This document shows, one piece after another, positions 14,317 through 59,559 of a stretch of 64,000 bases of DNA; position 1 is the stretch's first letter; each line of letters opens with the position of its first letter. The translations under genes were made by a program, and so were the position numbers. The notes beneath the pieces are model-generated. The model made no database searches. It saw nothing but the letters and a program-made list of their open reading frames with translations, and was not told the origin of the DNA. The stretch is from an uncultured Christensenella sp. (lineage in GTDB: Bacteria; Bacillota; Clostridia; Christensenellales; UBA1242), in contig CAJUGX010000004.1 in the NCBI GenBank assembly GCA_910586385.1, forward strand, positions 54,862 to 118,861. Reading direction: 5' to 3'.

Positions 14317-15963
14317 ATGGACAAATACCTTTCAGTAAAAGAAACAGCAGAGATTTTAGGAATAACTGCAAGACAAGTCAGAAATCTTTGCCACAACGGA
14401 AAAATTCCAAACGCAATCAAAATCGGGAAGTCTTATGCAATCCCTTCCGACTTTAAATTCAAAAATAAGACAGTTGAGACTTTGAAAGAGAAATTTGAAA
14501 AAGAACGTGGTCTTCAGGGCTTGAAGTACAACTATATTATTGTACATGGCACTTTTGGACACCCTGGAGAGAACTGGTTCCCTTGGCTTGCAGAAGAACT
14601 TTGCAAACTTGATTTAAGCGGGAAAACACAAAAAGAGGACATTCTTATTCCTCATTTTCCATCATCAGATTGTGCCGATTACGAATCTTGGAAAAGTATT
14701 CTTATGGGATATATAGACAGCGGAATAATCAACAAAAATACCATCTTCGTCTGTCACTCTCTTGGACCATTGTTTGTTTCAAAAGTTTTGATTGAAGAAC
14801 AAGTCAAGGTCAAAGGGCTTATTTCGGTTGAAGCGGCAGCAAATCATCTTATGGGAAATCCAGCATTTGACAAAATCAACAGCACATTTTTCGTTCCTTC
14901 ATGGGAATATCTTGAAAATGTCAAAAAATATATTGATTTCAACTATTGTTTCTACACCGACAATGACCCACATATCCCATATAATATTCTCTCTACCTAT
15001 GTGAAACATGCCGCAACAAAAGCATTTTTCATCCCAAATGCAGGACACTTCAACAGTATGTCAGGCTACACAAAATTTCCACAATTGCTTGAATTGATTC
15101 GAGACATAGAAATCAATTCTCCAATTCAAGAAAAAAAGATCGAAGGCATTGCACCAAATGGGCAATGGGATAAAGAGTTGTCTCATCAATGGACAAATAT
15201 GACTTGGCCTAATCGTCCTTCTGTAAGCGAACTAGCAATATACACAAAAGCACTCCGCAGGCACGAAAAAGAAAACTCTGGAAGAGATTGCCTAATCATG
15301 GGTTCAAATGTAGAATTCAGAGACTGGGCATATGAGGAAAACCTTAATGTGTCACTCATGAACAACAATGAAGAATATCATCTTGCCACCTATCGTGAAT
15401 TAAGACATAAAAAGGCACCTTATAAACTCATTCTTGATGACTGGAAAAAAATTGATTTCGATGAAAAATTTGACTTCATTGTTGGAGATGAACTTATAGG
15501 GAATCTTGAAACTCCAAACATAGAAGCATTTCTTTCAAAAGTTGCGAAATCTCTTAAAAAAGGCGGGCTGTTTTTGTCAAAATCAATATACTTGCCAAGA
15601 AATTACAAAATCAAATCCGTAAGAGAAATTTTTGCAGATTACTACAAAAATGGCAAAGGTTCAAACCCCCTTGCTTATTGTGAGTTCGATTTGACAATGA
15701 ATTGCTTAAATGACAAAAACATTGTTTCCTTCGAACAACTCAACACCATCATTCAACAATCATATAATCAAAACATAATAACACAAGAAACCTATGAATT
15801 TTTGAATGATATTGGAATTGATAATATGAAGTTCAACTTTTTTGTGCCATATTTGGATGATTACGAAAAAATAGTCAGCAAATATTTCAATATTGTTGAA
15901 AAATGTTACACCGATGATGTCGGCGCAAAAGATTACCCGATATATATACTTGAGAAAAAATAA
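14317..15963 (+). CDS. three-domain fusion: excisionase/MerR-type HTH, then YdeN/RBBP9-like serine hydrolase, then a methyltransferase-like Rossmann domain
   Basis: N-terminus LSVKETAEILGITARQVRNLCHNGKIPNAIKIGKSYAIP (HTH_17-like). The middle has IIVHGTFGHPGENWFPWL...VCHSLGP (a GxSxG-like nucleophile elbow). The C-terminus has CLIMGSNVEFRDWA...FDFIVGDELIGNL...LKKGGLFLSKS (class I MTase-like motif order). Confidence 0.6.
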   Translation: MDKYLSVKETAEILGITARQVRNLCHNGKIPNAIKIGKSYAIPSDFKFKNKTVETLKEKFEKERGLQGLKYNYIIVHGTFGHPGENWFPWLAEELCKLDLSGKTQKEDILIPHFPSSDCADYESWKSILMGYIDSGIINKNTIFVCHSLGPLFVSKVLIEEQVKVKGLISVEAAANHLMGNPAFDKINSTFFVPSWEYLENVKKYIDFNYCFYTDNDPHIPYNILSTYVKHAATKAFFIPNAGHFNSMSGYTKFPQLLELIRDIEINSPIQEKKIEGIAPNGQWDKELSHQWTNMTWPNRPSVSELAIYTKALRRHEKENSGRDCLIMGSNVEFRDWAYEENLNVSLMNNNEEYHLATYRELRHKKAPYKLILDDWKKIDFDEKFDFIVGDELIGNLETPNIEAFLSKVAKSLKKGGLFLSKSIYLPRNYKIKSVREIFADYYKNGKGSNPLAYCEFDLTMNCLNDKNIVSFEQLNTIIQQSYNQNIITQETYEFLNDIGIDNMKFNFFVPYLDDYEKIVSKYFNIVEKCYTDDVGAKDYPIYILEKK

Positions 15964-20773: not shown

Positions 20774-21170
20774 CGACAGTGCCCTCCATGATATGTTCAA
20801 GACTGACATCAAAGACATCTTTCACGTGTCTATCTGCAAGGGAATACCAAACTTCTTTCCCTTGCTTTCTACCAACAATCAAGTTGACATCTTTCAAATT
20901 TTTAAGTTGATGAGACACAGCCGACTTTGTCATATTCAAGATGTAAGCAATGTCACACACGCACAACTCGCCTGCCTCAAGCAAATTCAAAATCTTCACC
21001 CTTGTGCTGTCGGATATAACCTTAAAAAAGTCGGCAACTGAGATGAGCAACTCATCATCAATCATCCCCTTCTTGGCTTTATCAACTAGATCTTCGTGGA
21101 TAACATCGCAATCACATTCGATGTTGTTTTTTTGACAACCACACCCGCATTTTGCTTTACAAGTTTTCAT
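20757..21170 (-). CDS. cadC: ArsR/SmtB-family metal-sensing repressor (CadC-like) with a Cys-rich N-terminus
   Basis: LFKVISDSTRVKILNLLEAGELCVCDIAYILNMTKSAVSHQLKNLK (an ELCVCD alpha-3 metal site). The N-terminus is MKTCKAKCGCGCQKNNIECDCD. Start at ATG 21170 (AGAGGAGAG RBS). Its stop overlaps the cadA start by 17 nt. Confidence 0.85.
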   Translation of the reverse strand: MKTCKAKCGCGCQKNNIECDCDVIHEDLVDKAKKGMIDDELLISVADFFKVISDSTRVKILNLLEAGELCVCDIAYILNMTKSAVSHQLKNLKDVNLIVGRKQGKEVWYSLADRHVKDVFDVSLEHIMEGTVDEKGC

Positions 21171-21211
21171 TTTCTCTCCTCTTTTTATCTTATGCCCAAC
21201 CACCTTAATAG

Positions 21212-21258
21212 TTGAATATTCATTCAATCATCCTTATTATAATTGAACACTCATTCAA
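21212..21258. promoter_or_regulatory. two TTGAA-N6-TTCAA inverted repeats, candidate CadC operators
   Basis: TTGAATATTCATTCAA (21212-21227) and TTGAACACTCATTCAA (21243-21258), upstream of cadC. Confidence 0.45.
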
Positions 21259-21420
21259 CTGTCAAGCAAAAATAAATAGATTTTTTTAAGATCTTTTATA
21301 CATGACTTTTTCCCACATCAATCTCACAATAAATCATCCCAAATATTCTTCAAAATCAAACAAAGAAAAATATTTTACAAAGCAACTAAACTATGCTATA
21401 CTATACGCGTCAAATCAAAC

Positions 21421-21496
21421 GACCTCGTAGTAAAACAGGATATTACGGCCCCCTCCTAAGGGGTTGTTCTGGGTTCGAGTCCCGGCGGGGTCACCA
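21421..21496 (+). tRNA. tRNA-Arg (anticodon CCT), CCA encoded
   Basis: Hand-folded cloverleaf. Acceptor stem gacctcg/cggggtc, D stem gtaa/ttac, anticodon stem gcccc/ggggt with loop ctCCTaa, T arm ctggg-ttcgagt-cccgg, then discriminator a and cca. Promoter TTTACA (21374-21379), 17 nt spacer, TATACT (21397-21402). Confidence 0.85.
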
Positions 21497-21553
21497 AAAT
21501 TTACTCCATTTTTAATCATTTCTATTTATACAATGGCTGATTCGGAGGAAGCT

Positions 21554-22819
21554 ATGGTGGTCAATTTTCCACTTGCATGCAATGTCTGTGGATGTAAAAT
21601 AAGAATGCGATATCAAGTATCAGAGGACAAATGTCCTGTAAATTTTTTATGTCCAAATTGCAAAACAACAATAAGTGGAACTATGCAAACTATATGGCAC
21701 TATGGCAATGAAGATAAAGAAAAATTTCCTTGGCATTACAACTTTCAATTTAACAACGCCACCAAAGTAGAAAACGATGATTGTGAAGATTGCGAATTTG
21801 TGATGGAAGTATCATCTGACTTATTGGTTAGCAATATAAAAAGAAATGAAGATTCAGATTTAATCAGTCCATTTATAAGATGTGTTTCTAAATGTGGGAA
21901 CAAAATAACACAAACTTCCAGATTTTACAATTTTCTATCAAGATGGAACAAAGAATGGAATGATATAAAGGTTAATTTGGACCTTTGCCATAATGAGATG
22001 TATGACACCCTTCTAAAAAGGTTTCCCAAAACCTATGATAAAATATTCCCAAGAGACATAAATGCCATATTAACCACACATCAACAGTTAATAAACTTTT
22101 GCAACAAAATTTTGCCGAAAGACACCCTTCATGAATTTATAAAACTAAACAACAGGATAATCACCCTAAAATCACAACAGCCTGAAAACTTCGAAAAATT
22201 TACATCAATTTTCGACTTAACTTATGTAAAAGATAATGAAAGAAAGTTGTTGCATCTTATAAAAAGTTTTATTGATATGTATCCATTGTTCTTGCCAGTT
22301 TTTACATCATTAAGCTTCACCGATGTCAATGGAATGGGCATATCTACATTAAATTTTGAAAAACTTAAATCATTTTATCACGACTCATATGAATTGATAC
22401 TGCATATATTGCCCCAAATAATTGCCCTTAACAACATAAGCACTAGAAATGATATAAACAATTTTATGGGAAATATAGTTGATTTCGAATCAAAAATAAA
22501 TTCATACACTTCGAAATATAAAATATATGATGATTTATTGGATAGAAAGGAAAAATTCTCTTGGTTGATTACAGATAGAATTACAAATCATATCAGAAAC
22601 TCGATTGGACATTTCAACTATGAAGAAAGCCCTATTGATCAAACAATTACGTTTACTGACAAACACAAGGGCAAAATCAACACTTTCACAAAAACATTAC
22701 TTGAAGTTGCACGCGATTGTATTTATATGTTCTATTCTTTAATTAACCTCTTAGAACTAAATTATGATTTGTTAAAAATTTTGTCTATCGATTCGGTTAA
22801 GGCATCCGCGAATGGTTGA
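21554..22819 (+). CDS. zinc-ribbon protein with a C-terminal HEPN-like RNxxxH motif (putative RNase or defence/toxin protein)
   Basis: The ORF-track start at 21464 overlaps the tRNA. ATG 21554 has GGAGG 5 nt upstream (ATG 21533 is an alternative). The N-terminus has CNVCGC...CPVNFLCPNC (CxxC...CxxC). Near the C-terminus, NHIRNSIGHFNY (nt 22595-22612) fits the HEPN Rx4H / RNxxxH catalytic motif. The coding sequence is markedly AT-rich. Confidence 0.5.
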   Translation: MVVNFPLACNVCGCKIRMRYQVSEDKCPVNFLCPNCKTTISGTMQTIWHYGNEDKEKFPWHYNFQFNNATKVENDDCEDCEFVMEVSSDLLVSNIKRNEDSDLISPFIRCVSKCGNKITQTSRFYNFLSRWNKEWNDIKVNLDLCHNEMYDTLLKRFPKTYDKIFPRDINAILTTHQQLINFCNKILPKDTLHEFIKLNNRIITLKSQQPENFEKFTSIFDLTYVKDNERKLLHLIKSFIDMYPLFLPVFTSLSFTDVNGMGISTLNFEKLKSFYHDSYELILHILPQIIALNNISTRNDINNFMGNIVDFESKINSYTSKYKIYDDLLDRKEKFSWLITDRITNHIRNSIGHFNYEESPIDQTITFTDKHKGKINTFTKTLLEVARDCIYMFYSLINLLELNYDLLKILSIDSVKASANG

Positions 22820-22837
22820 GCATAAACCGATGTATAC

Positions 22838-22875
22838 AAAAAAATGCGACAAAAACTGTTGCATTTTTCTTTTTT
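22838..22875 (+). terminator. terminator of the zinc-ribbon/HEPN-like gene
   Basis: atgcgac / gttgcat stem (one G-U pair) followed by a T-run. It overlaps the -35 of the next promoter. Confidence 0.55.
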
Positions 22876-22887
22876 ATGTTTTATAAT
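22859..22887 (+). promoter_or_regulatory. near-consensus promoter of a miniature gene
   Basis: TTGCAT (22859-22864), 17 nt spacer, TATAAT (22882-22887). A 5' hairpin atgcttgaac/gttcaagcat (22892-22913) follows. Confidence 0.55.
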
Positions 22888-22937
22888 ACCGATGCTTGAA
22901 CAAGTTCAAGCATGTGCATATAAGGAGGTGATGACTT

Positions 22938-23024
22938 ATGAAACTCTTAATAAGTCAAGTTGGCTCCTGTTTGGAATATCCGCAGGTCATCTCCTTATTT
23001 TCTAAATATACTGGCAAATTTTAG
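22938..23024 (+). CDS. 28-codon small ORF with a strong SD (function unknown)
   Basis: AAGGAGGTGA, then ATG 22938 nine nt after GGAGG. Translation is MKLLISQVGSCLEYPQVISLFSKYTGKF. An alternative overlapping frame from ATG 22931 gives MTYETLNKSSWLLFGISAGHLLIF. Bounded by its own promoter and terminator. Confidence 0.3.
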   Translation: MKLLISQVGSCLEYPQVISLFSKYTGKF

Positions 23025-23035
23025 CCATAGACATA

Positions 23036-23073
23036 TAAAAAAGTAAGCATAAAATTCTAAGCTTACTTTTTTG
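23036..23073. terminator. bidirectional terminator (small gene / SDR operon)
   Basis: aagtaagc / gcttactt stem flanked by A5 and T6. Confidence 0.6.
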
Positions 23074-23097: not shown

Positions 23098-23838
23098 TTA
23101 CCTCAGTCCGCCGTCGACGCAGATTGTTTGAGCAGTGATGTAGCGGGCTTTGTCGCTGGTGAGGAATGTCGCGACATCTGCAATCTCCTCTGGTGTTGCA
23201 AAACGAGCTTTCATAATTCGACCTTTCTCTTCTTCAATAAAGTCATTTGGAAGACTGTCATTCATGCTGGTCTCAACCCACCCAGGTGCAATGCAGTTTA
23301 CATTGACATGTGGAGCAAGTTGCGAAGCGAGATTGTTTGTAAGTGAGATAATCCCCGCCTTCGAAGCGTCATAATCCATTGAGGTTGGATAAAGCGTGTT
23401 GATTCCGTTTGTTGAAGAGATGTTGAGTATGCTTGGCATATCACTCTTCTTGAGTTCTTCCGAAAAATGTTTTGCAGTCAAGAATACTGAAATGAGGTTT
23501 GTATTGAGGGTCTTTGTCCAATGTTGAAAAGTCTTCTCCTCAAATGGAGCATCGAAGACAATCCCCGCATTGTTTACCAAGATGTCAACTCTTCCAAAAG
23601 CCTTCAAAGTCTCTTCCCTGAGTTTGATGACATCTGGCTCCTTGCTGACATCACCTTTGACAGTGAGGCATTTGACACCATAGTTTTCAATCGCCATTTT
23701 TGTAATCTGAGCGTCAAGGTCGCTTTTGTGATAATTGACAACAACATTTGCTCCTAGTTTGGCGTAAGCGATTGCGATACTTCTTCCAATTCCACGGCTT
23801 GCACCCGTGACAACAACAACTCTATTTGTGTAATTCAT
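23098..23838 (-). CDS. short-chain dehydrogenase/reductase (FabG-like)
   Basis: VVVVTGASRGIGRSIA (TGxxxGIG), NNAG, and a YxxxK region (YDASKAG). Confidence 0.85.
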   Translation of the reverse strand: MNYTNRVVVVTGASRGIGRSIAIAYAKLGANVVVNYHKSDLDAQITKMAIENYGVKCLTVKGDVSKEPDVIKLREETLKAFGRVDILVNNAGIVFDAPFEEKTFQHWTKTLNTNLISVFLTAKHFSEELKKSDMPSILNISSTNGINTLYPTSMDYDASKAGIISLTNNLASQLAPHVNVNCIAPGWVETSMNDSLPNDFIEEEKGRIMKARFATPEEIADVATFLTSDKARYITAQTICVDGGLR

Positions 23839-24976
23839 AAAACACCTCCAACTCTTTCAGATTTGCAACTTTTATACTGTTTGCTCGCAGGTAATCATTG
23901 ACCTGTTTGCAACGCTCAAGATCTTCGGTGCCGGCATTGATATACCCCAAAGTATACTCGGTAATCTCGTCATGATAAACACTCTTGTTTGCATAATAGA
24001 TGACGCCCTCGTCAATATAATCGCAAAACTCAGGTTTATCTTTTTTCAACTGGTCGAAACTGATGAAATAAATCCCAGAGTTTTCGTTGAGGTTTTCGGC
24101 ATACATCCTTGTTGTAAAGTGGTTGCAAATTTGCGCAAGCTTGCTCTTGTCATAAACATAGATGAAGTTTGCATGCACACCTTTTTTGAGTGACAACAAA
24201 ATGCTTTTGAAATAATCGAGTTCTTGATTGCTGTCGCTAAACTCGACCTCATTGCCTATTGCAATGTGAGTAAATTCGTCTGTCTCGTCAAAAGAATAAT
24301 ATTGTTCTCTCAAAAATTCATATGCTTTCTGAATTGACGCAAATCTTTTTATCAGTTGCGGAGAAGTTTCACAACCACCAAGATCAATGGTCGCAGGAAG
24401 ACAAACTCTGCCTTCAAGTTTCAGCTCCAAAAGGGAATAAATCTCTTTCAAAATCCCCTCTTCGGCATAGAAAATTTTACCATGATAAGAAAGAGTCTGC
24501 TCATCAACCAAATCAAAGCCTACAATTTTGAGAAATCGGTTGTCCTTCAACACCTTTTTGCCAACATAAACCACTGAAGCAGTCTCATCATAAAAATCTT
24601 CATCAAAGCAGTTTACAAAGATGATTGAAACAAAATTCAAATCGCAAAATGCTTTCGCAGTCACCTTTTTGATGTGATGAATCTTTGAAAGAGGCTTTAT
24701 TGCAACATTGCAATAGACTTCTTTTTCATTTGTCAGAAAGTTGTGAGCAACCGCCCTCGCAACAAAACTCTCCTTGTCTTTGGTGACAATCAAGACCTTA
24801 TCAAGCCCGCTACCCACCTGTTTTGCCTTGATTTCTTTTGGATTGACAGCGTCGTCTGGGATGAGATAACTCCTCCCCACTTTTTGTGCACCAGGGATTT
24901 CTCCATTTGCACACAAAGCACGCACTCTTCTTCCGCTTACGCTCCAAATCTTTGCAACTTGTTCTACTGAAAGCAT
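23822..24976 (-). CDS. excisionase/MerR-type HTH fused to an uncharacterised domain of about 330 aa
   Basis: The N-terminus LSVEQVAKIWSVSGRRVRALCANGEIPGAQKVGRSYLIPDD is paralogous to the N-terminus of the 14317 protein. Its 3' end overlaps the SDR start by 17 nt. Promoter TTGACA, 16 nt spacer, TGgTATAAT just upstream. Confidence 0.6.
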   Translation of the reverse strand: MLSVEQVAKIWSVSGRRVRALCANGEIPGAQKVGRSYLIPDDAVNPKEIKAKQVGSGLDKVLIVTKDKESFVARAVAHNFLTNEKEVYCNVAIKPLSKIHHIKKVTAKAFCDLNFVSIIFVNCFDEDFYDETASVVYVGKKVLKDNRFLKIVGFDLVDEQTLSYHGKIFYAEEGILKEIYSLLELKLEGRVCLPATIDLGGCETSPQLIKRFASIQKAYEFLREQYYSFDETDEFTHIAIGNEVEFSDSNQELDYFKSILLSLKKGVHANFIYVYDKSKLAQICNHFTTRMYAENLNENSGIYFISFDQLKKDKPEFCDYIDEGVIYYANKSVYHDEITEYTLGYINAGTEDLERCKQVNDYLRANSIKVANLKELEVFYELHK

Positions 24977-56111: not shown

Positions 56112-57530
56112 TCATCGAATGTTGTCAGGAAAGTCATTTTCAAAAAGCACCACATCCCCTTTTTGCAAGATGGACTTCAGAAGAATTTGTTGCTCTTTTC
56201 TTGTCTTTGCGTAGAAAATCTGCTCGTCTCGCATGCCGGACTCTTTTGCCCCTTTAGAAAGATTTTCTTTGTTTGCCTCATTCATGATGACAAAAATGTC
56301 AGCAACCTCTCCGACCAGTTTACCCGCCAAAAAATTTTGCTCGGCTTGTGATGAGCCAAGTTCCACCATCCCTGGAGAGACAACCACTCTTCTAGTCTTA
56401 AATTGTGAAATGGTTTTAAGAGCTTCCTTAAACCCGTCTATGTTGCTGTTGTAAGAATCATCAATCACATCAACAAACTCACCTTTGATAAGCTCAAGTC
56501 TGTGAGGGGCTGATTGAAGTTTCTCAATCGCCTTGTGCACAGAATACAAACTCTCTCCCAAAAGGTAAGCCATAGTGCCAGCAACCACAATGTTGTCAAT
56601 GTTTGAGCTTCCCAAAAGTTTTGTCTGGCAATCAAACTTTTGCCCATCAATCACAAAGACAAACTTTGAGCCTTGAGGTGTTGCCTGAATATCCTCCGCA
56701 TAAGCAAAACTGCCCTTTTCACATACAAGATATTTTTTGTGCTTATATCTGTCATAGAGTTTTTTTGTCGATGAACTTTTCCCATTGAAGACAACCAAAT
56801 CTTTTGTCGCTTCGCAAAGCTCGTACTTTGTGTCTTCAATCTTTTCAATCGTACCAAAACTTTCCAGATGACAACTTCCAATCGGAGTCATTATCCCAAA
56901 ATCGACACCTACAAAGTCTGCCAAAAATTTGATATCTCCACTGTGTCTTGCACCCATCTCAACAATAAAGAAATCATCCGTCTCTTTCAGGTTTTCCAAA
57001 ATTGCTTTTGACACCCCCATAGGCGTGTTGAAACTTTTTGGAGTTGCACAAACATCAAATTCTTCTTTCAAAATTTGATACAAAAAGTTTTTTGTTGACG
57101 TCTTGCCAAAACTTCCAGTTATGCCAATTTTTTTACCAGAAAAACCCTTCAGTTTCTTCTTTGCTTTCTTAATAAAATGAATTTTTATTGTTTTTTCAAT
57201 GGGCTCAGCCAATAAATATGGCGCGCATAAAATAAATGGATAATAAATTCCACTCAAAATAATTGGAATAATTAAATAAATATTTTTAATTAAATAAAAT
57301 ATTACAAAAAAATATAAAAAATTAAATAAAAATATAATAAAAATCAATCTTTTTATTCTTTTTGTAAACGCCAGAGTGCTTTTGCCACCGAATAAAAACG
57401 GATTTTTAATAATTATTTTTATATAATTTTTTATTTTATAATTTTCTAATTGAAATGCCTTAATAAAAATAATTGAAAAAATGGTAAATATTATTGAAAT
57501 AATTGTCGAATAAATTACAAACATTTTCAC
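56112..57530 (-). CDS. murF: MurF-type UDP-MurNAc-tripeptide--D-Ala-D-Ala ligase with a hydrophobic multi-TM N-terminal region replacing the usual N-terminal domain
   Basis: GITGSFGKTSTK, KSFNTPMGV, SAPHRLELI, VIDDSYNSN and SPGMVELG match MurF central and C-terminal motifs. The first ~125 aa are Ile/Phe/Lys/Tyr-rich predicted TM helices encoded by extremely AT-rich DNA. Confidence 0.78.
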   Translation of the reverse strand: MKMFVIYSTIISIIFTIFSIIFIKAFQLENYKIKNYIKIIIKNPFLFGGKSTLAFTKRIKRLIFIIFLFNFLYFFVIFYLIKNIYLIIPIILSGIYYPFILCAPYLLAEPIEKTIKIHFIKKAKKKLKGFSGKKIGITGSFGKTSTKNFLYQILKEEFDVCATPKSFNTPMGVSKAILENLKETDDFFIVEMGARHSGDIKFLADFVGVDFGIMTPIGSCHLESFGTIEKIEDTKYELCEATKDLVVFNGKSSSTKKLYDRYKHKKYLVCEKGSFAYAEDIQATPQGSKFVFVIDGQKFDCQTKLLGSSNIDNIVVAGTMAYLLGESLYSVHKAIEKLQSAPHRLELIKGEFVDVIDDSYNSNIDGFKEALKTISQFKTRRVVVSPGMVELGSSQAEQNFLAGKLVGEVADIFVIMNEANKENLSKGAKESGMRDEQIFYAKTRKEQQILLKSILQKGDVVLFENDFPDNIR

Positions 57531-58249
57531 CTCTTAAGTAAAAATTCTTTCAAGACTACTGAAAACTCCAATTTTCTGTCAACGAAAGAAAAATGTCCCG
57601 CATCTTCCAAAATCACAAGGGTCGAATTTTTGATTTTCCTGTGAAGTCGTTTTGCCATGTAGATAGGAGTTGTCTGATCGTCACGACCAAACACAATCAA
57701 TGTGTCACATTTTATGTAGGGAAGAAATTCGTCCAAATGAGTGCTCACAATGCTGTTGAACACTTTTCTCATTTCAGGCTCAAGCGCAAGATAGTCACAA
57801 CTGCCATATTTTGAAACATTCATCTTCAACTTTTTCTTCAGTTTGTAAATGCCAACCTTTGCATAATAAGACAGGCTTCGTCTTGGCTTTGTGCCAGCAC
57901 TGTCAATAAGCACAAGTGCATTTGTCTCATCTTTGCAAAGCACTGAAACAATCGTTGCGATTCTTCCTCCAAACGAATGTCCGATAAGATTGAATCTGTT
58001 TATCTTGAGTTTCTTGCACAATGCTATGAGCATATTTGCATATGTGAAAACATTCCAATCTGGCAAGCTTTTCCCGCTCTCTCCAAATGGTGGAAAATCC
58101 ACAAAAAGGCAACTGTTTTTTGTCAGGTTTCGGCAGAAAAATAGACTCATGTGATCACAGCCCCAACCATGCAAAAAGACATCTGTTGTTTCCGATTTTC
58201 TATCTATGTATTTATAAAAGATTTCACAATCCCGATATTCATACTTCAT
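57527..58249 (-). CDS. alpha/beta hydrolase
   Basis: FLHGWGCD...LIGHSFGGRIA (GxSxG)...DAGHF. The stop overlaps the murF start (4 nt), and it begins 11 nt after murC. Confidence 0.75.
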   Translation of the reverse strand: MKYEYRDCEIFYKYIDRKSETTDVFLHGWGCDHMSLFFCRNLTKNSCLFVDFPPFGESGKSLPDWNVFTYANMLIALCKKLKINRFNLIGHSFGGRIATIVSVLCKDETNALVLIDSAGTKPRRSLSYYAKVGIYKLKKKLKMNVSKYGSCDYLALEPEMRKVFNSIVSTHLDEFLPYIKCDTLIVFGRDDQTTPIYMAKRLHRKIKNSTLVILEDAGHFSFVDRKLEFSVVLKEFLLKR

Positions 58250-58260
58250 ACAAAATCATT

Positions 58261-59559
58261 CTATGAAAGAAATTTATTTTTGTGTAAAATCGCTGGCAGA
58301 TCCCCCGCCCCAACAAACATCAGCACGTCTTTTCTGCAAAGCTCTCCAATCAACTTTTGCAATTGGTCAAAATCATCGGCATACTTTGTGTTTGGATTTT
58401 TCTCCACCAAAACTCCTGCAAGGTCTTTTGCGCTCACGCCATCACTTTCTTTTTCTCGAGCGGAATAAGTCTTATACAAAATCGGCACATCGACCACCCT
58501 CAAAACCTCAATAAATTTTTCAAAGAAGTCTCTAGTTCTGCTGAAAGTGTGCGGTTGGAAAACAACAACAAGTCGTCTCTTTTTGAATATCTTCCTCGCT
58601 GATGAAATCGCCTTTTCAATCTCTGTCGGATGATGCGAATAGTCGCACAAGACATCATCAAACTTGTCACAGACAACCCTCTCAAATCTGGTTTTGACGC
58701 CTTTGAAATTTTCAAGCCCCGTCTTTATCTCTTCATCAGAAAGTCCCAGAAGCCTGCAAACTCGATAAGCATATATGCAATTTTGCGAGTTTATATCTTC
58801 ACATATGTGCAAATTTAGTCGCATGAGTTTTTTGCCATTTTCACAAAGATTGAATGACAGCTGCCCATTCTTTTTGTGTCTGAGATTTTTGGCAGAGAAT
58901 CCACCATCCCCCTCAACGACAAATTTTGATTGAAACCGAAACTTTTCAAATGACTCAAGTTGTCTGTCAAATGTCTTGAAATAATCCATGTGTTCTGGCT
59001 CAACATTTGTCACAACACTTATAAATGGGTGAAGATTCAGAAAGTTGTCACAATACTCACACGCCTCCGTGACAAAAATCTCTTTCCCTCCGACATAAAA
59101 GTTTTTTCCATCCTCACACCTAAACCCGCCAAGATGCAGGCTCGGGTTCTTTTGAGCACATTTCAAGACCTCATAAATCATTGCAGTGGTTGTGGTTTTT
59201 CCATGAGAGCCCGCCACTGCCAGCACCTTGTAATATTCATCCGAAATCGCCCCAAGAAGTTGACCTCGCGAGAAAATTTTCTTCCCAAACCTTTGAGCTG
59301 CACTCAAAAATTCATTTCCAGTTTTTATTGCTGAAGAGCAAACAACATAATCCGCCTCGGCAATCTTTCTTTCGTCCAACTCAAAATCAACAACAACTCC
59401 CCTCTCCTCAAGCATCACAACTGCATCGGATCTGCTTGAATCACTTCCTCCAACAATGTTTCCACTTTCTTTCAGAAAAATGGCAAGAGCGGACATTGAG
59501 ATTCCACCAATGCCAAGCAGATAAAATCTTTTTCCTTTGTTCAATTCGATATTTTCCAT
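58261..59559 (-). CDS. murC: UDP-N-acetylmuramate--L-alanine ligase
   Basis: FYLLGIGGISMSALA, VAGSHGKTTTTAM. Confidence 0.9.
   Translation of the reverse strand: MENIELNKGKRFYLLGIGGISMSALAIFLKESGNIVGGSDSSRSDAVVMLEERGVVVDFELDERKIAEADYVVCSSAIKTGNEFLSAAQRFGKKIFSRGQLLGAISDEYYKVLAVAGSHGKTTTTAMIYEVLKCAQKNPSLHLGGFRCEDGKNFYVGGKEIFVTEACEYCDNFLNLHPFISVVTNVEPEHMDYFKTFDRQLESFEKFRFQSKFVVEGDGGFSAKNLRHKKNGQLSFNLCENGKKLMRLNLHICEDINSQNCIYAYRVCRLLGLSDEEIKTGLENFKGVKTRFERVVCDKFDDVLCDYSHHPTEIEKAISSARKIFKKRRLVVVFQPHTFSRTRDFFEKFIEVLRVVDVPILYKTYSAREKESDGVSAKDLAGVLVEKNPNTKYADDFDQLQKLIGELCRKDVLMFVGAGDLPAILHKNKFLS

Follow-up and report, generated by a model that had tools for sequence, protein, structure and literature searches.

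An AT-rich gene beside tRNA-Arg in an uncultured Christensenella encodes a zinc-ribbon protein with a putative HEPN-type domain

The gene described here lies in a window of 64,000 nucleotides (nt), the whole stretch of DNA that was analysed, from an uncultured Christensenella sp. (assembly GCA_910586385.1, contig CAJUGX010000004.1, positions 54,862 to 118,861 of the forward strand). Its start codon is found 58 nt past the CCA end of tRNA-Arg(CCT), the sole tRNA detected by ARAGORN in the window, and its product is a protein of 421 amino acids (aa; predicted mass about 49 kDa) composed of an N-terminal zinc ribbon, a helical middle region and a C-terminal domain with an RNxxxH motif (Table 1). 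An earlier interpretation of the DNA letters, made without database searches and referred to below as the sequence-only reading, had described this arrangement, including the length of the open reading frame (ORF), its distance from the tRNA and its AT-richness relative to the flanks, and in these respects it was accurate. The mechanical ORF extends from 21464 to 22819 (451 aa, TTG start) and overlaps the tRNA gene. The ATG codon was taken as the biological start because MVxNF begins all 31 close homologues and a GGAGGA sequence precedes it by 5 nt; residues R378 and H383, as numbered from the TTG in the sequence-only reading, are R348 and H353 here. The GC content of the ORF is 30.4% versus a window mean of 38.5% (standard deviation 2.7%, equal-length windows), the lowest of any stretch of its length in the 64 kb; 0.5% of the sliding windows are equally low, all of them overlapping the ORF. 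GC at third codon positions (GC3) is 0.30 versus 0.37-0.46 in the neighbour genes. The gene is compositionally foreign here. The second-lowest GC stretch in the window, at about 57051-58316, has a GC content of 0.314.

The domain structure of the protein was modelled with AlphaFold2 (AF2). The full-length model, based on an alignment of 33 sequences, reached a predicted local distance difference test score (pLDDT) of 88.7 and a predicted template modelling score (pTM) of 0.90, with the motif loop alone being poorly defined; a model of residues 215-421, based on 45 more diverse sequences, reached a pLDDT of 94.8 and a pTM of 0.90 with no weak segment. The N-terminal zinc ribbon, proposed earlier from its cysteine spacing, was recovered with C9, C12, C33 and C36 as predicted zinc ligands (nt 21578-21661) and with strands at residues 2-9, 15-21, 27-32, 39-48 and 60-71 (pLDDT >90). 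Relatives show weak Pfam matches to zinc ribbons, namely Zn_ribbon_DUF2089 in 25 of 110 and Cys_rich_KTR in 14. The middle region was correctly anticipated as helical: AF2 places helices at 106-114, 118-146, 167-186 and 191-208, and this domain is a candidate specificity or sensor region. The C-terminal domain begins with helices 222-241 and 243-252 and a long helix, 268-298, bearing E280, N294 and R298. An insert consisting of a small hairpin and two short helices follows, and past it a short helix (345-352), H353, a three-stranded beta-meander (356-381) and a long final helix (382-420). The RNSIGH motif ends 68 residues from the C-terminus, close to the earlier estimate of about 70.

The protein belongs to a large family. 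Its single library match is to phrog_13366, a PHROGs family with no assigned function (E 1e-9, full length). A word-indexed search returned 33 relatives, and an exhaustive profile search returned 739 clusters (50% identity) at E <=1e-3, of which 374 at E <=1e-10; the genome-collection scan used alignment A1, the wide alignment A2 being too diverse. No relatives were found by tblastn in a phage collection, yet ten viral contigs of IMG/VR encode distant ones. Nearly all members are 400-480 aa long and align end to end. In an alignment of 141 full-length members with a mean column identity of 22%, every column varies except R348, N349 and H353; the sequence-only reading, which would have been refuted by a lack of conservation of R and H among homologues, is favoured in this respect. 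R-N-x-x-x-H was kept in all 150 representatives covering the region, among the matches listed. An Rx4H string alone is common by chance, and RNSIGH is considered more than a chance occurrence because no other column is invariant at such low overall identity. At least 90% conservation was observed for C9, C12, C33, C36, G42, S87, position 94, P106 and L144 and, in the C-terminal part, for P248, Y275, E280, N294, R298 and Q363. At residue 94 (nt 21833-21835) the window protein has N where at least 90% of the family have K; its remaining highly conserved residues are intact. Information content is highest in the motif helix, at 2.43 bits, followed by the long helix 268-298 with 2.23 bits; the column mean is 1.79 bits for the zinc ribbon, 1.70 for the C-terminal domain and 1.21, the lowest, for the middle region 101-214.

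A C-terminal SEC-C zinc-binding motif occurs in 38 of 110 relatives and was not found in the window protein by a Pfam scan. Some relatives matched the PADLOC models PDC-S12 and CBASS E2-type, and these matches were rejected as evidence of family membership because they covered only the last 25-60 residues, where the aligned part was the SEC-C motif only. The window protein has no PDC-S12 or E2 match in PADLOC.

The sequence-only reading had likened the motif to the catalytic signature of HEPN RNases. A HEPN assignment of the C-terminal domain is supported by the motif, its position at the end of a short helix, the near-invariant E280 in the preceding long helix and a modest profile match, but not by the fold (in HEPN domains a four-helix up-down bundle), which is not confirmed since Foldseek finds no solved HEPN structure. 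HEPN domains have been described as a first hairpin, an insert, a third helix ending in Rx4-6H and a last helix, with an acidic residue in helix 2 (PMC3710099). The sequence R348-N349-S-I-G-H353 has the Rx4-6H spacing, and its R is followed by N, one of the polar residues (N, H or D) usual at this position; in the domain model, helix 345-352 ends at this point and H353 is the next residue. The order of elements in the model matches the published description, and E280 is a candidate counterpart of the helix-2 acidic residue. A beta-hairpin directly after the HEPN motif has precedent in Csx1.

The support from profile comparison is modest. Four of 110 relatives match the Pfam family PF18736 'HEPN pEK499 p136', the best with E 0.0014 and all below its cut-off; the window protein itself does not match this model. 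The type protein of the family, from plasmid pEK499, is WP_000528932.1, annotated 'HEPN family nuclease', and a profile of 48 aligned members was used for comparison, the homologues of the type protein all carrying PF18736. Against this profile, hhalign returned a probability of 56% (E 1.1e-4) for the whole-protein profile and of 72% (E 3.3e-5) for the C-terminal profile, and a reversed control returned 0.1% (E 0.57). The alignment spans LxxxxRN[SA]I[AG]HF and continues through the next strands as far as I-x-F-x-D. With an HMM of the PF18736 alignment, weak matches (8-13 bits) were obtained at residues of about 335-405 in more than 20 members, compared with one in the reversed control, and single members weakly matched the Cas13a and CARF_HEPN models. 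This evidence is consistent and specific while remaining sub-threshold, and it points to a HEPN-like catalytic core closest to the pEK499_p136 family. Membership of the HEPN superfamily is thus probable but unproven, supported by motif, position and profile and not by a fold match.

The sequence-only reading had also proposed to check homologues for enrichment near defence genes; qualitatively, homologues were indeed observed near defence genes or mobile elements. One homologue shares an integrase-bounded island with Hachiman (HamA and helicase), type I M and S subunits, an AIPR protein and Cas9-Cas1-Cas2; others adjoin HsdM/HsdS, and TnpV elements with Mob and resolvase genes or with RelB/Zeta hold further ones. 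One widespread variant is cargo of an integrative and conjugative element (ICE), beside a relaxase and a Schlafen-type protein and with TrbL in the region. The 138 neighbours at 19 further genome loci include seven tyrosine and six large serine recombinases as well as GmrSD, HerA, a type II restriction endonuclease, an EcoRI methylase, DpdF and PsyrT. Plasmid-borne homologues, annotated 'SEC-C metal-binding domain-containing protein', were found in 36 records (Enterococcus 26, Bacillus 6, Lactococcus 2), 30 of which are mobilisable or conjugative. They adjoin small serine recombinases, which have been reported as markers of defence loci (PMC13552941), and in one case AbiV is 5 kb away. The homologues include WP_159156973.1, on an E. 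faecalis plasmid, and USI69397.1 of L. petauri. The distant relatives on the ten IMG/VR contigs are located among recombinase, lysis, portal, capsid and terminase genes. All-against-all clustering of the neighbours of 28 contexts yielded no constant partner; recombinases, HsdM, TnpV, an HTH_17 protein and a small ORF recur, each in a minority, and PADLOC scans of candidate partner genes were negative. Plasmids, prophages, integrative elements and defence islands thus carry the relatives as cargo, with no constant partner gene, and the absence of a conserved neighbour indicates that the protein works alone. Small ORFs are present directly upstream of the homologue at two restriction-modification-linked loci (104 and 81 aa at L001, 9390-9951; a related one of 133 aa at L004, 1782-2183); they have no Pfam or PADLOC match and are absent from the window. 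At four of 28 other loci (L031, L032, L044 and L045) a tRNA gene occurs within about 1 kb of the homologue (Pro-TGG in three, Leu-CAG in one; 0.4-0.8 kb downstream on the opposite strand), so that the family is repeatedly found at tRNA-linked insertion spots.

In the window, an ArsR/P-type ATPase operon and the tRNA-Arg lie to one side of the gene; to the other lies an SDR/HTH_17 gene pair, followed further out by a YetF protein and a LysR regulator. No MNT protein or other antitoxin is adjacent, as had been noted before, and the uncharacterised neighbours have no PADLOC match. As to the earlier suggestion of a horizontally acquired defence module, acquisition is inferred from the composition of the gene and from the scattered contexts of its relatives. 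The surroundings give no such sign: the gene is not in a defence island here, no integrase and no meaningful direct or inverted repeats were found around it, and no second copy of the tRNA-Arg 3' end, as an attachment-site repeat, was found in the window. The identical protein was called on eight contigs, the longest being CATLHI010000003.1 of GCA_949949015.1, and all eight have the same arrangement. No strain-level empty site is available because every contig with the identical SDR neighbour also carries the gene, nor could such a site be reconstructed from relatives: at the four closest metagenome loci (61-64% identity), synteny is restricted to the ArsR-ATPase pair, and more distant relatives of the ATPase operon show none.

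Several further features of the neighbourhood were recorded. A palindromic, AT-rich region (21234-21268) precedes the ArsR/P-type ATPase operon; it is 85-94% identical to the corresponding position at loci L053 and L054, where the operon proteins are only about 60% identical to those of the window, and is probably an ArsR-family operator. About 6 kb from the gene, a 548-aa protein (14317-15963, plus strand) with HTH_17 and Ser_hydrolase domains has weak PADLOC matches to the MADS components mad1 and mad2 (E 1.8e-5 and 8.8e-8) and may be defence-related. Two genes downstream of the ORF, the 384-aa HTH_17 protein (23822-24976, minus strand) is, over its first 47 residues, 51% identical to a 386-aa protein encoded directly upstream of family members in TnpV elements (L005, 8809-9969; L020, 6807-7967; L029, 736-1896), the remainder being unrelated; this likeness may be coincidental, or different bodies may carry a common DNA-binding head.

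With regard to expression, a contig from a gut metatranscriptome (21436-22053) begins inside tRNA-Arg, runs over the 57-nt spacer and covers the first 500 nt of the ORF; a second was located at 22532-22711 and a third, of higher depth, over the SDR gene. No contig covered most of the ArsR gene (20807-21341) or 22840-23053. The patchiness of this pattern argues for RNA rather than DNA carry-over, and, as one contig runs through both, tRNA-Arg and the ORF appear to be on a common transcript. The promoter-like site upstream of the tRNA is likely the promoter of a transcript that is predicted to extend through tRNA-Arg into the ORF. Low-level expression of the ORF on a transcript shared with tRNA-Arg(CCT), probably from this site, is thus suggested, but only suggested, by these data. 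The hairpin 21 nt past the stop codon marks the end of the transcription unit.

The remainder of the analysed interval, 22820-23073, comprises this terminator-like hairpin and a small unrelated unit and is not part of the gene. The unit, compactly placed between the ORF terminator and the SDR gene (22859-23072), consists of a promoter-like sequence, a palindrome, a strong AGGAGG, a 28-codon ORF and a terminator-like inverted repeat. It has no Rfam family, no conservation in related loci and no coverage by RNA contigs. The 28-codon ORF was considered as an antitoxin gene and rejected since it is unconserved in related loci and lacks RNA coverage.

Table 1. Coordinates of the gene, its predicted domains and signals, and the unit downstream (window numbering).
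Feature	Position	Strand	Basis
Promoter-like site upstream of tRNA-Arg: TTTACA, 17 nt, TATACT, with TG	21374-21402	+	Consensus scan, 10/12 matches
tRNA-Arg (anticodon CCT)	21421-21496	+	ARAGORN; Rfam RF00005, 55.7 bits
Shine-Dalgarno sequence GGAGGA	21544-21549	+	5 nt before ATG 21554; read from sequence
Protein-coding sequence, 421 aa (zinc ribbon, helical middle, HEPN-like domain)	21554-22819	+	ORF list, conserved start
N-terminal beta-rich Cys4 zinc-ribbon domain, aa 1-100	21554-21853	+	Conserved Cys, AF2 model
Linker and helical middle domain, aa 101-214	21854-22195	+	AF2 helices; variability highest among family members
C-terminal HEPN-like domain, aa 215-421	22196-22816	+	AF2 domain model, hhalign to PF18736
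E280 codon, near-invariant acidic residue in the long helix preceding the motif	22391-22393	+	4.21 of 4.32 bits
RNSIGH (R348-H353), predicted catalytic Rx4H motif	22595-22612	+	Invariance; aligns to RNSIAHF of the pEK499_p136 HEPN family
Terminator-like hairpin, 12-pair stem (22840-22868), then T-run	22840-22876	+	Terminator scan; 21 nt past stop codon
Promoter-like TTGCAT, 17 nt, TATAAT	22859-22887		
Perfect 10-bp palindrome ATGCTTGAAC/GTTCAAGCAT	22891-22912		
Strong AGGAGG	22923-22928		
28-codon ORF, MKLLISQVGSCLEYPQVISLFSKYTGKF	22938-23024		
18-nt inverted repeat, terminator-like	23037-23072		

We propose that the gene encodes a self-contained sensor-effector protein with three modules, the zinc ribbon (residues 1-100), the variable helical domain (101-214) and the conserved C-terminal domain (215-421). 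The latter would be a divergent HEPN-type RNase in which two copies pair and bring their Rx4H motifs together, with E280 assisting. In the uninfected cell, the enzyme would need no antitoxin to stay inactive, its N-terminal modules or oligomeric state serving this purpose. Once the zinc-ribbon or helical modules sense a trigger derived from the phage, the enzyme would be turned on, and cleavage of cellular and/or phage RNA would stop translation and abort the infection. The parts of this proposal differ in strength. That the C-terminal domain is of HEPN type is fairly probable, and a biological role in anti-phage or anti-element defence is somewhat favoured; for the full description, a single-gene, latent HEPN-type RNase of new architecture acting in abortive infection or defence, the chances appear about even.

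Several observations weigh against this proposal. The window protein has no family match in Pfam, NCBIfam or PADLOC (PADLOC-DB v2), its best PADLOC score being to Cas13a at an E-value of only 0.13. Its neighbours in the window are ordinary genes and form no defence island, and the RNA evidence consists of assembled contigs with a depth of about 4, for which DNA carry-over is a possible source. Foldseek found nothing significant for the full-length model in PDB and BFVD and no HEPN or other structure in PDB for the domain model (best E 0.34 and 0.9 for the two models), the PDB sequence-profile search returned noise only, and the match to PF18736 spans only 31 columns and is below the usual confidence threshold. 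The protein might accordingly be an enzyme or nucleic-acid-binding protein of new fold whose RNxxxH resembles HEPN by convergence, in which case it may still be a conflict effector (a DNase or other hydrolase) or a zinc-ribbon regulator. Neither of the two confident models matching a HEPN structure, the lack of a PDB sequence match, the shortness of the profile match and the three-stranded meander between motif and last helix, which is unusual for HEPN, are in line with convergence. However, the PF18736 match covers the motif together with the next strands and scores far above the reversed control, many members show it at the same location, and the HEPN description agrees with both the motif position and the conserved acidic residue. 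We regard convergence as unlikely.

The contexts of the relatives raise the question of whether the protein instead serves its mobile elements, either as a toxin for addiction or stabilisation or in attacks on competing plasmids and prophages, any anti-phage protection being at most a side effect. Most contexts are indeed mobile cargo (TnpV elements, the ICE with relaxase and TrbL, the mobilisable or conjugative plasmids), family members lie at prophage ends beside recombinases, and RelB/Zeta, Fst and VapBC-type modules are nearby. Yet addiction modules need a labile antidote whereas no partner is conserved, no element surrounds the window copy, which stands alone in the chromosome, and several contexts are classical defence islands, so that a service to the elements is rather improbable. 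The toxin of a toxin-antitoxin pair, with an unrecognised small protein or RNA as antitoxin, would be in keeping with the frequent pairing of HEPN toxins with MNT or other antitoxins (PMC3710099), with the small upstream ORFs at L001 and L004 and with the promoter-palindrome-ORF unit just downstream in the window. But the upstream ORFs are absent from most loci and from the window, where the tRNA is directly upstream, and the downstream ORF failed on conservation and RNA coverage. No MNT protein is nearby, indicating that the window protein is not a HEPN-MNT toxin, and a pair of any kind is very improbable. Finally, the RNA contig covering both tRNA and ORF start, together with the tRNA genes near homologues at four other loci, could be taken to mean that the protein is a housekeeping RNA-processing factor tied to the co-transcribed tRNA-Arg(CCT). 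The tRNAs at those loci differ (Pro and Leu), are on the opposite strand and downstream, and are absent at most loci; tRNA genes are common insertion hot spots, and the gene is patchily distributed, compositionally foreign and borne on plasmids and prophages. A housekeeping function is thus hardly credible.

Returning to a latent HEPN-type RNase, a bolder version of this proposal can be formulated, in which the family is an undescribed class of single-protein immune sensors whose zinc ribbon and helical domain sense a phage protein and activate a remodelled HEPN RNase, its HEPN fold being too far from solved structures for Foldseek, and which is widespread in plasmids, prophages and defence islands of Firmicutes, including Enterococcus faecalis and Lactococcus. 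As a whole, this combination is tentative and has clearly less than an even chance; within it, the family may also account for the catalytic nature, hitherto unrecognised, of systems such as Rugutis. It is more speculative to ascribe a function to the co-transcription, with tRNA-Arg(CCT) serving as target, decoy or spare. If the proposal of a latent HEPN-type RNase is correct, a large family (the 739 clusters, with no Pfam, NCBIfam or PADLOC model) would be added to the HEPN effectors of abortive infection. Its members are at present labelled only 'hypothetical' or 'SEC-C metal-binding domain-containing protein' in databases. The family would represent a second, independent coupling of a zinc ribbon to a HEPN domain in a single antitoxin-free protein, allowing a comparison with RAZR of how such enzymes stay silent and what they sense. 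For gut Clostridia, in which few systems are known, defence-finder tools would gain a model that marks defence loci. Specialists will be familiar with the concept; the family is large and unnamed and has tractable homologues, and as plasmids of the cultivable E. faecalis, Lactococcus and Bacillus carry some of these, the prediction is cheap to test. Should the HEPN assignment fail, the family would still offer an invariant site of three residues and a fold that is modelled with confidence and lacks a solved relative.

Among known systems, the pEK499_p136-like HEPN family (PF18736; PMC3710099) is the closest to the window protein by sequence profile. Both share the core xxLxxxxRN[SA]I[AG]HF followed by strands ending in I-x-F-x-D and the Rx4H motif with N after R, and both are found with restriction-modification genes and on plasmids. 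The PF18736 proteins are stand-alone domains of about 160 aa, whereas the window protein has some 215 additional N-terminal residues, comprising the zinc ribbon and the helical domain, and a larger insert. An Rx4-6H active site, as predicted for the window protein, is found in the single-protein HEPN effectors Abi_2/AbiD/AbiF, ApeA and AbiV and in the anticodon nucleases PrrC/RloC of type I restriction-modification loci. These are latent nucleases triggered by infection, and the window family has no sequence similarity to them in Pfam or PADLOC. They are often located beside hsdM/hsdS, an arrangement also seen for the homologues at L001, L004 and L009; the N-terminal modules differ, as the window protein has neither an ABC ATPase nor an ApeA-NTD.

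Rugutis (pUCCL633_059, BioProject PRJNA1086404) is a 359-aa single-gene Abi-like system of a lactococcal plasmid with a SEC-C motif, is activated by the large terminase and has a confident AF2 model without PDB relatives (PMC11381338, PMC12184496). By description, it resembles the window family in being a single gene of similar size on Gram-positive plasmids with a small zinc-binding motif, and HMMER relatives of Rugutis have been reported in 'Clostridiales bacterium'. However, SEC-C is N-terminal in the description of Rugutis, C-terminal in the relatives of the window protein and absent from the window protein itself, a HEPN motif is not reported for Rugutis, and tblastn with two family members matched no Lactococcus lactis plasmid.

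A precedent for antitoxin-free, single-protein HEPN defence is given by the HEPN proteins of the DefensePredictor study and, in more detail, by RAZR/PD-T7-4, a single gene encoding an N-terminal Cys4 zinc ribbon and a divergent HEPN domain with catalytic R and H (PMC13017515). RAZR needs no antitoxin, is non-toxic until triggered and is activated by assembling around phage ring proteins, and its homologues occur in Gram-positive and Gram-negative bacteria (PMC13017515). The window protein has in common with it the N-terminal Cys4 zinc ribbon, as judged by the conserved cysteines and the model. RAZR is a protein of about 25 kDa with a DUF4145 HEPN domain and R146...H154 (Rx7H), whereas the window protein, at 49 kDa, has an additional helical domain and RNxxxH; the most variable part is the zinc finger in RAZR and the middle helical domain in the window family. 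DUF4145 (PF13643) was not matched by the window protein and was not among the top Pfam families of the 110 relatives, PD-T7-4 was matched in PADLOC by neither, and no sequence or fold match was obtained in the PDB library, which should include the RAZR entries 9Y9C and 9Y6U. Because of these missing matches, the different motif spacing and the twofold size, the window protein, though similar to RAZR in layout, is not a member of that family. RAZR/PD-T7-4 is nevertheless the closest working precedent for the mechanism proposed here.

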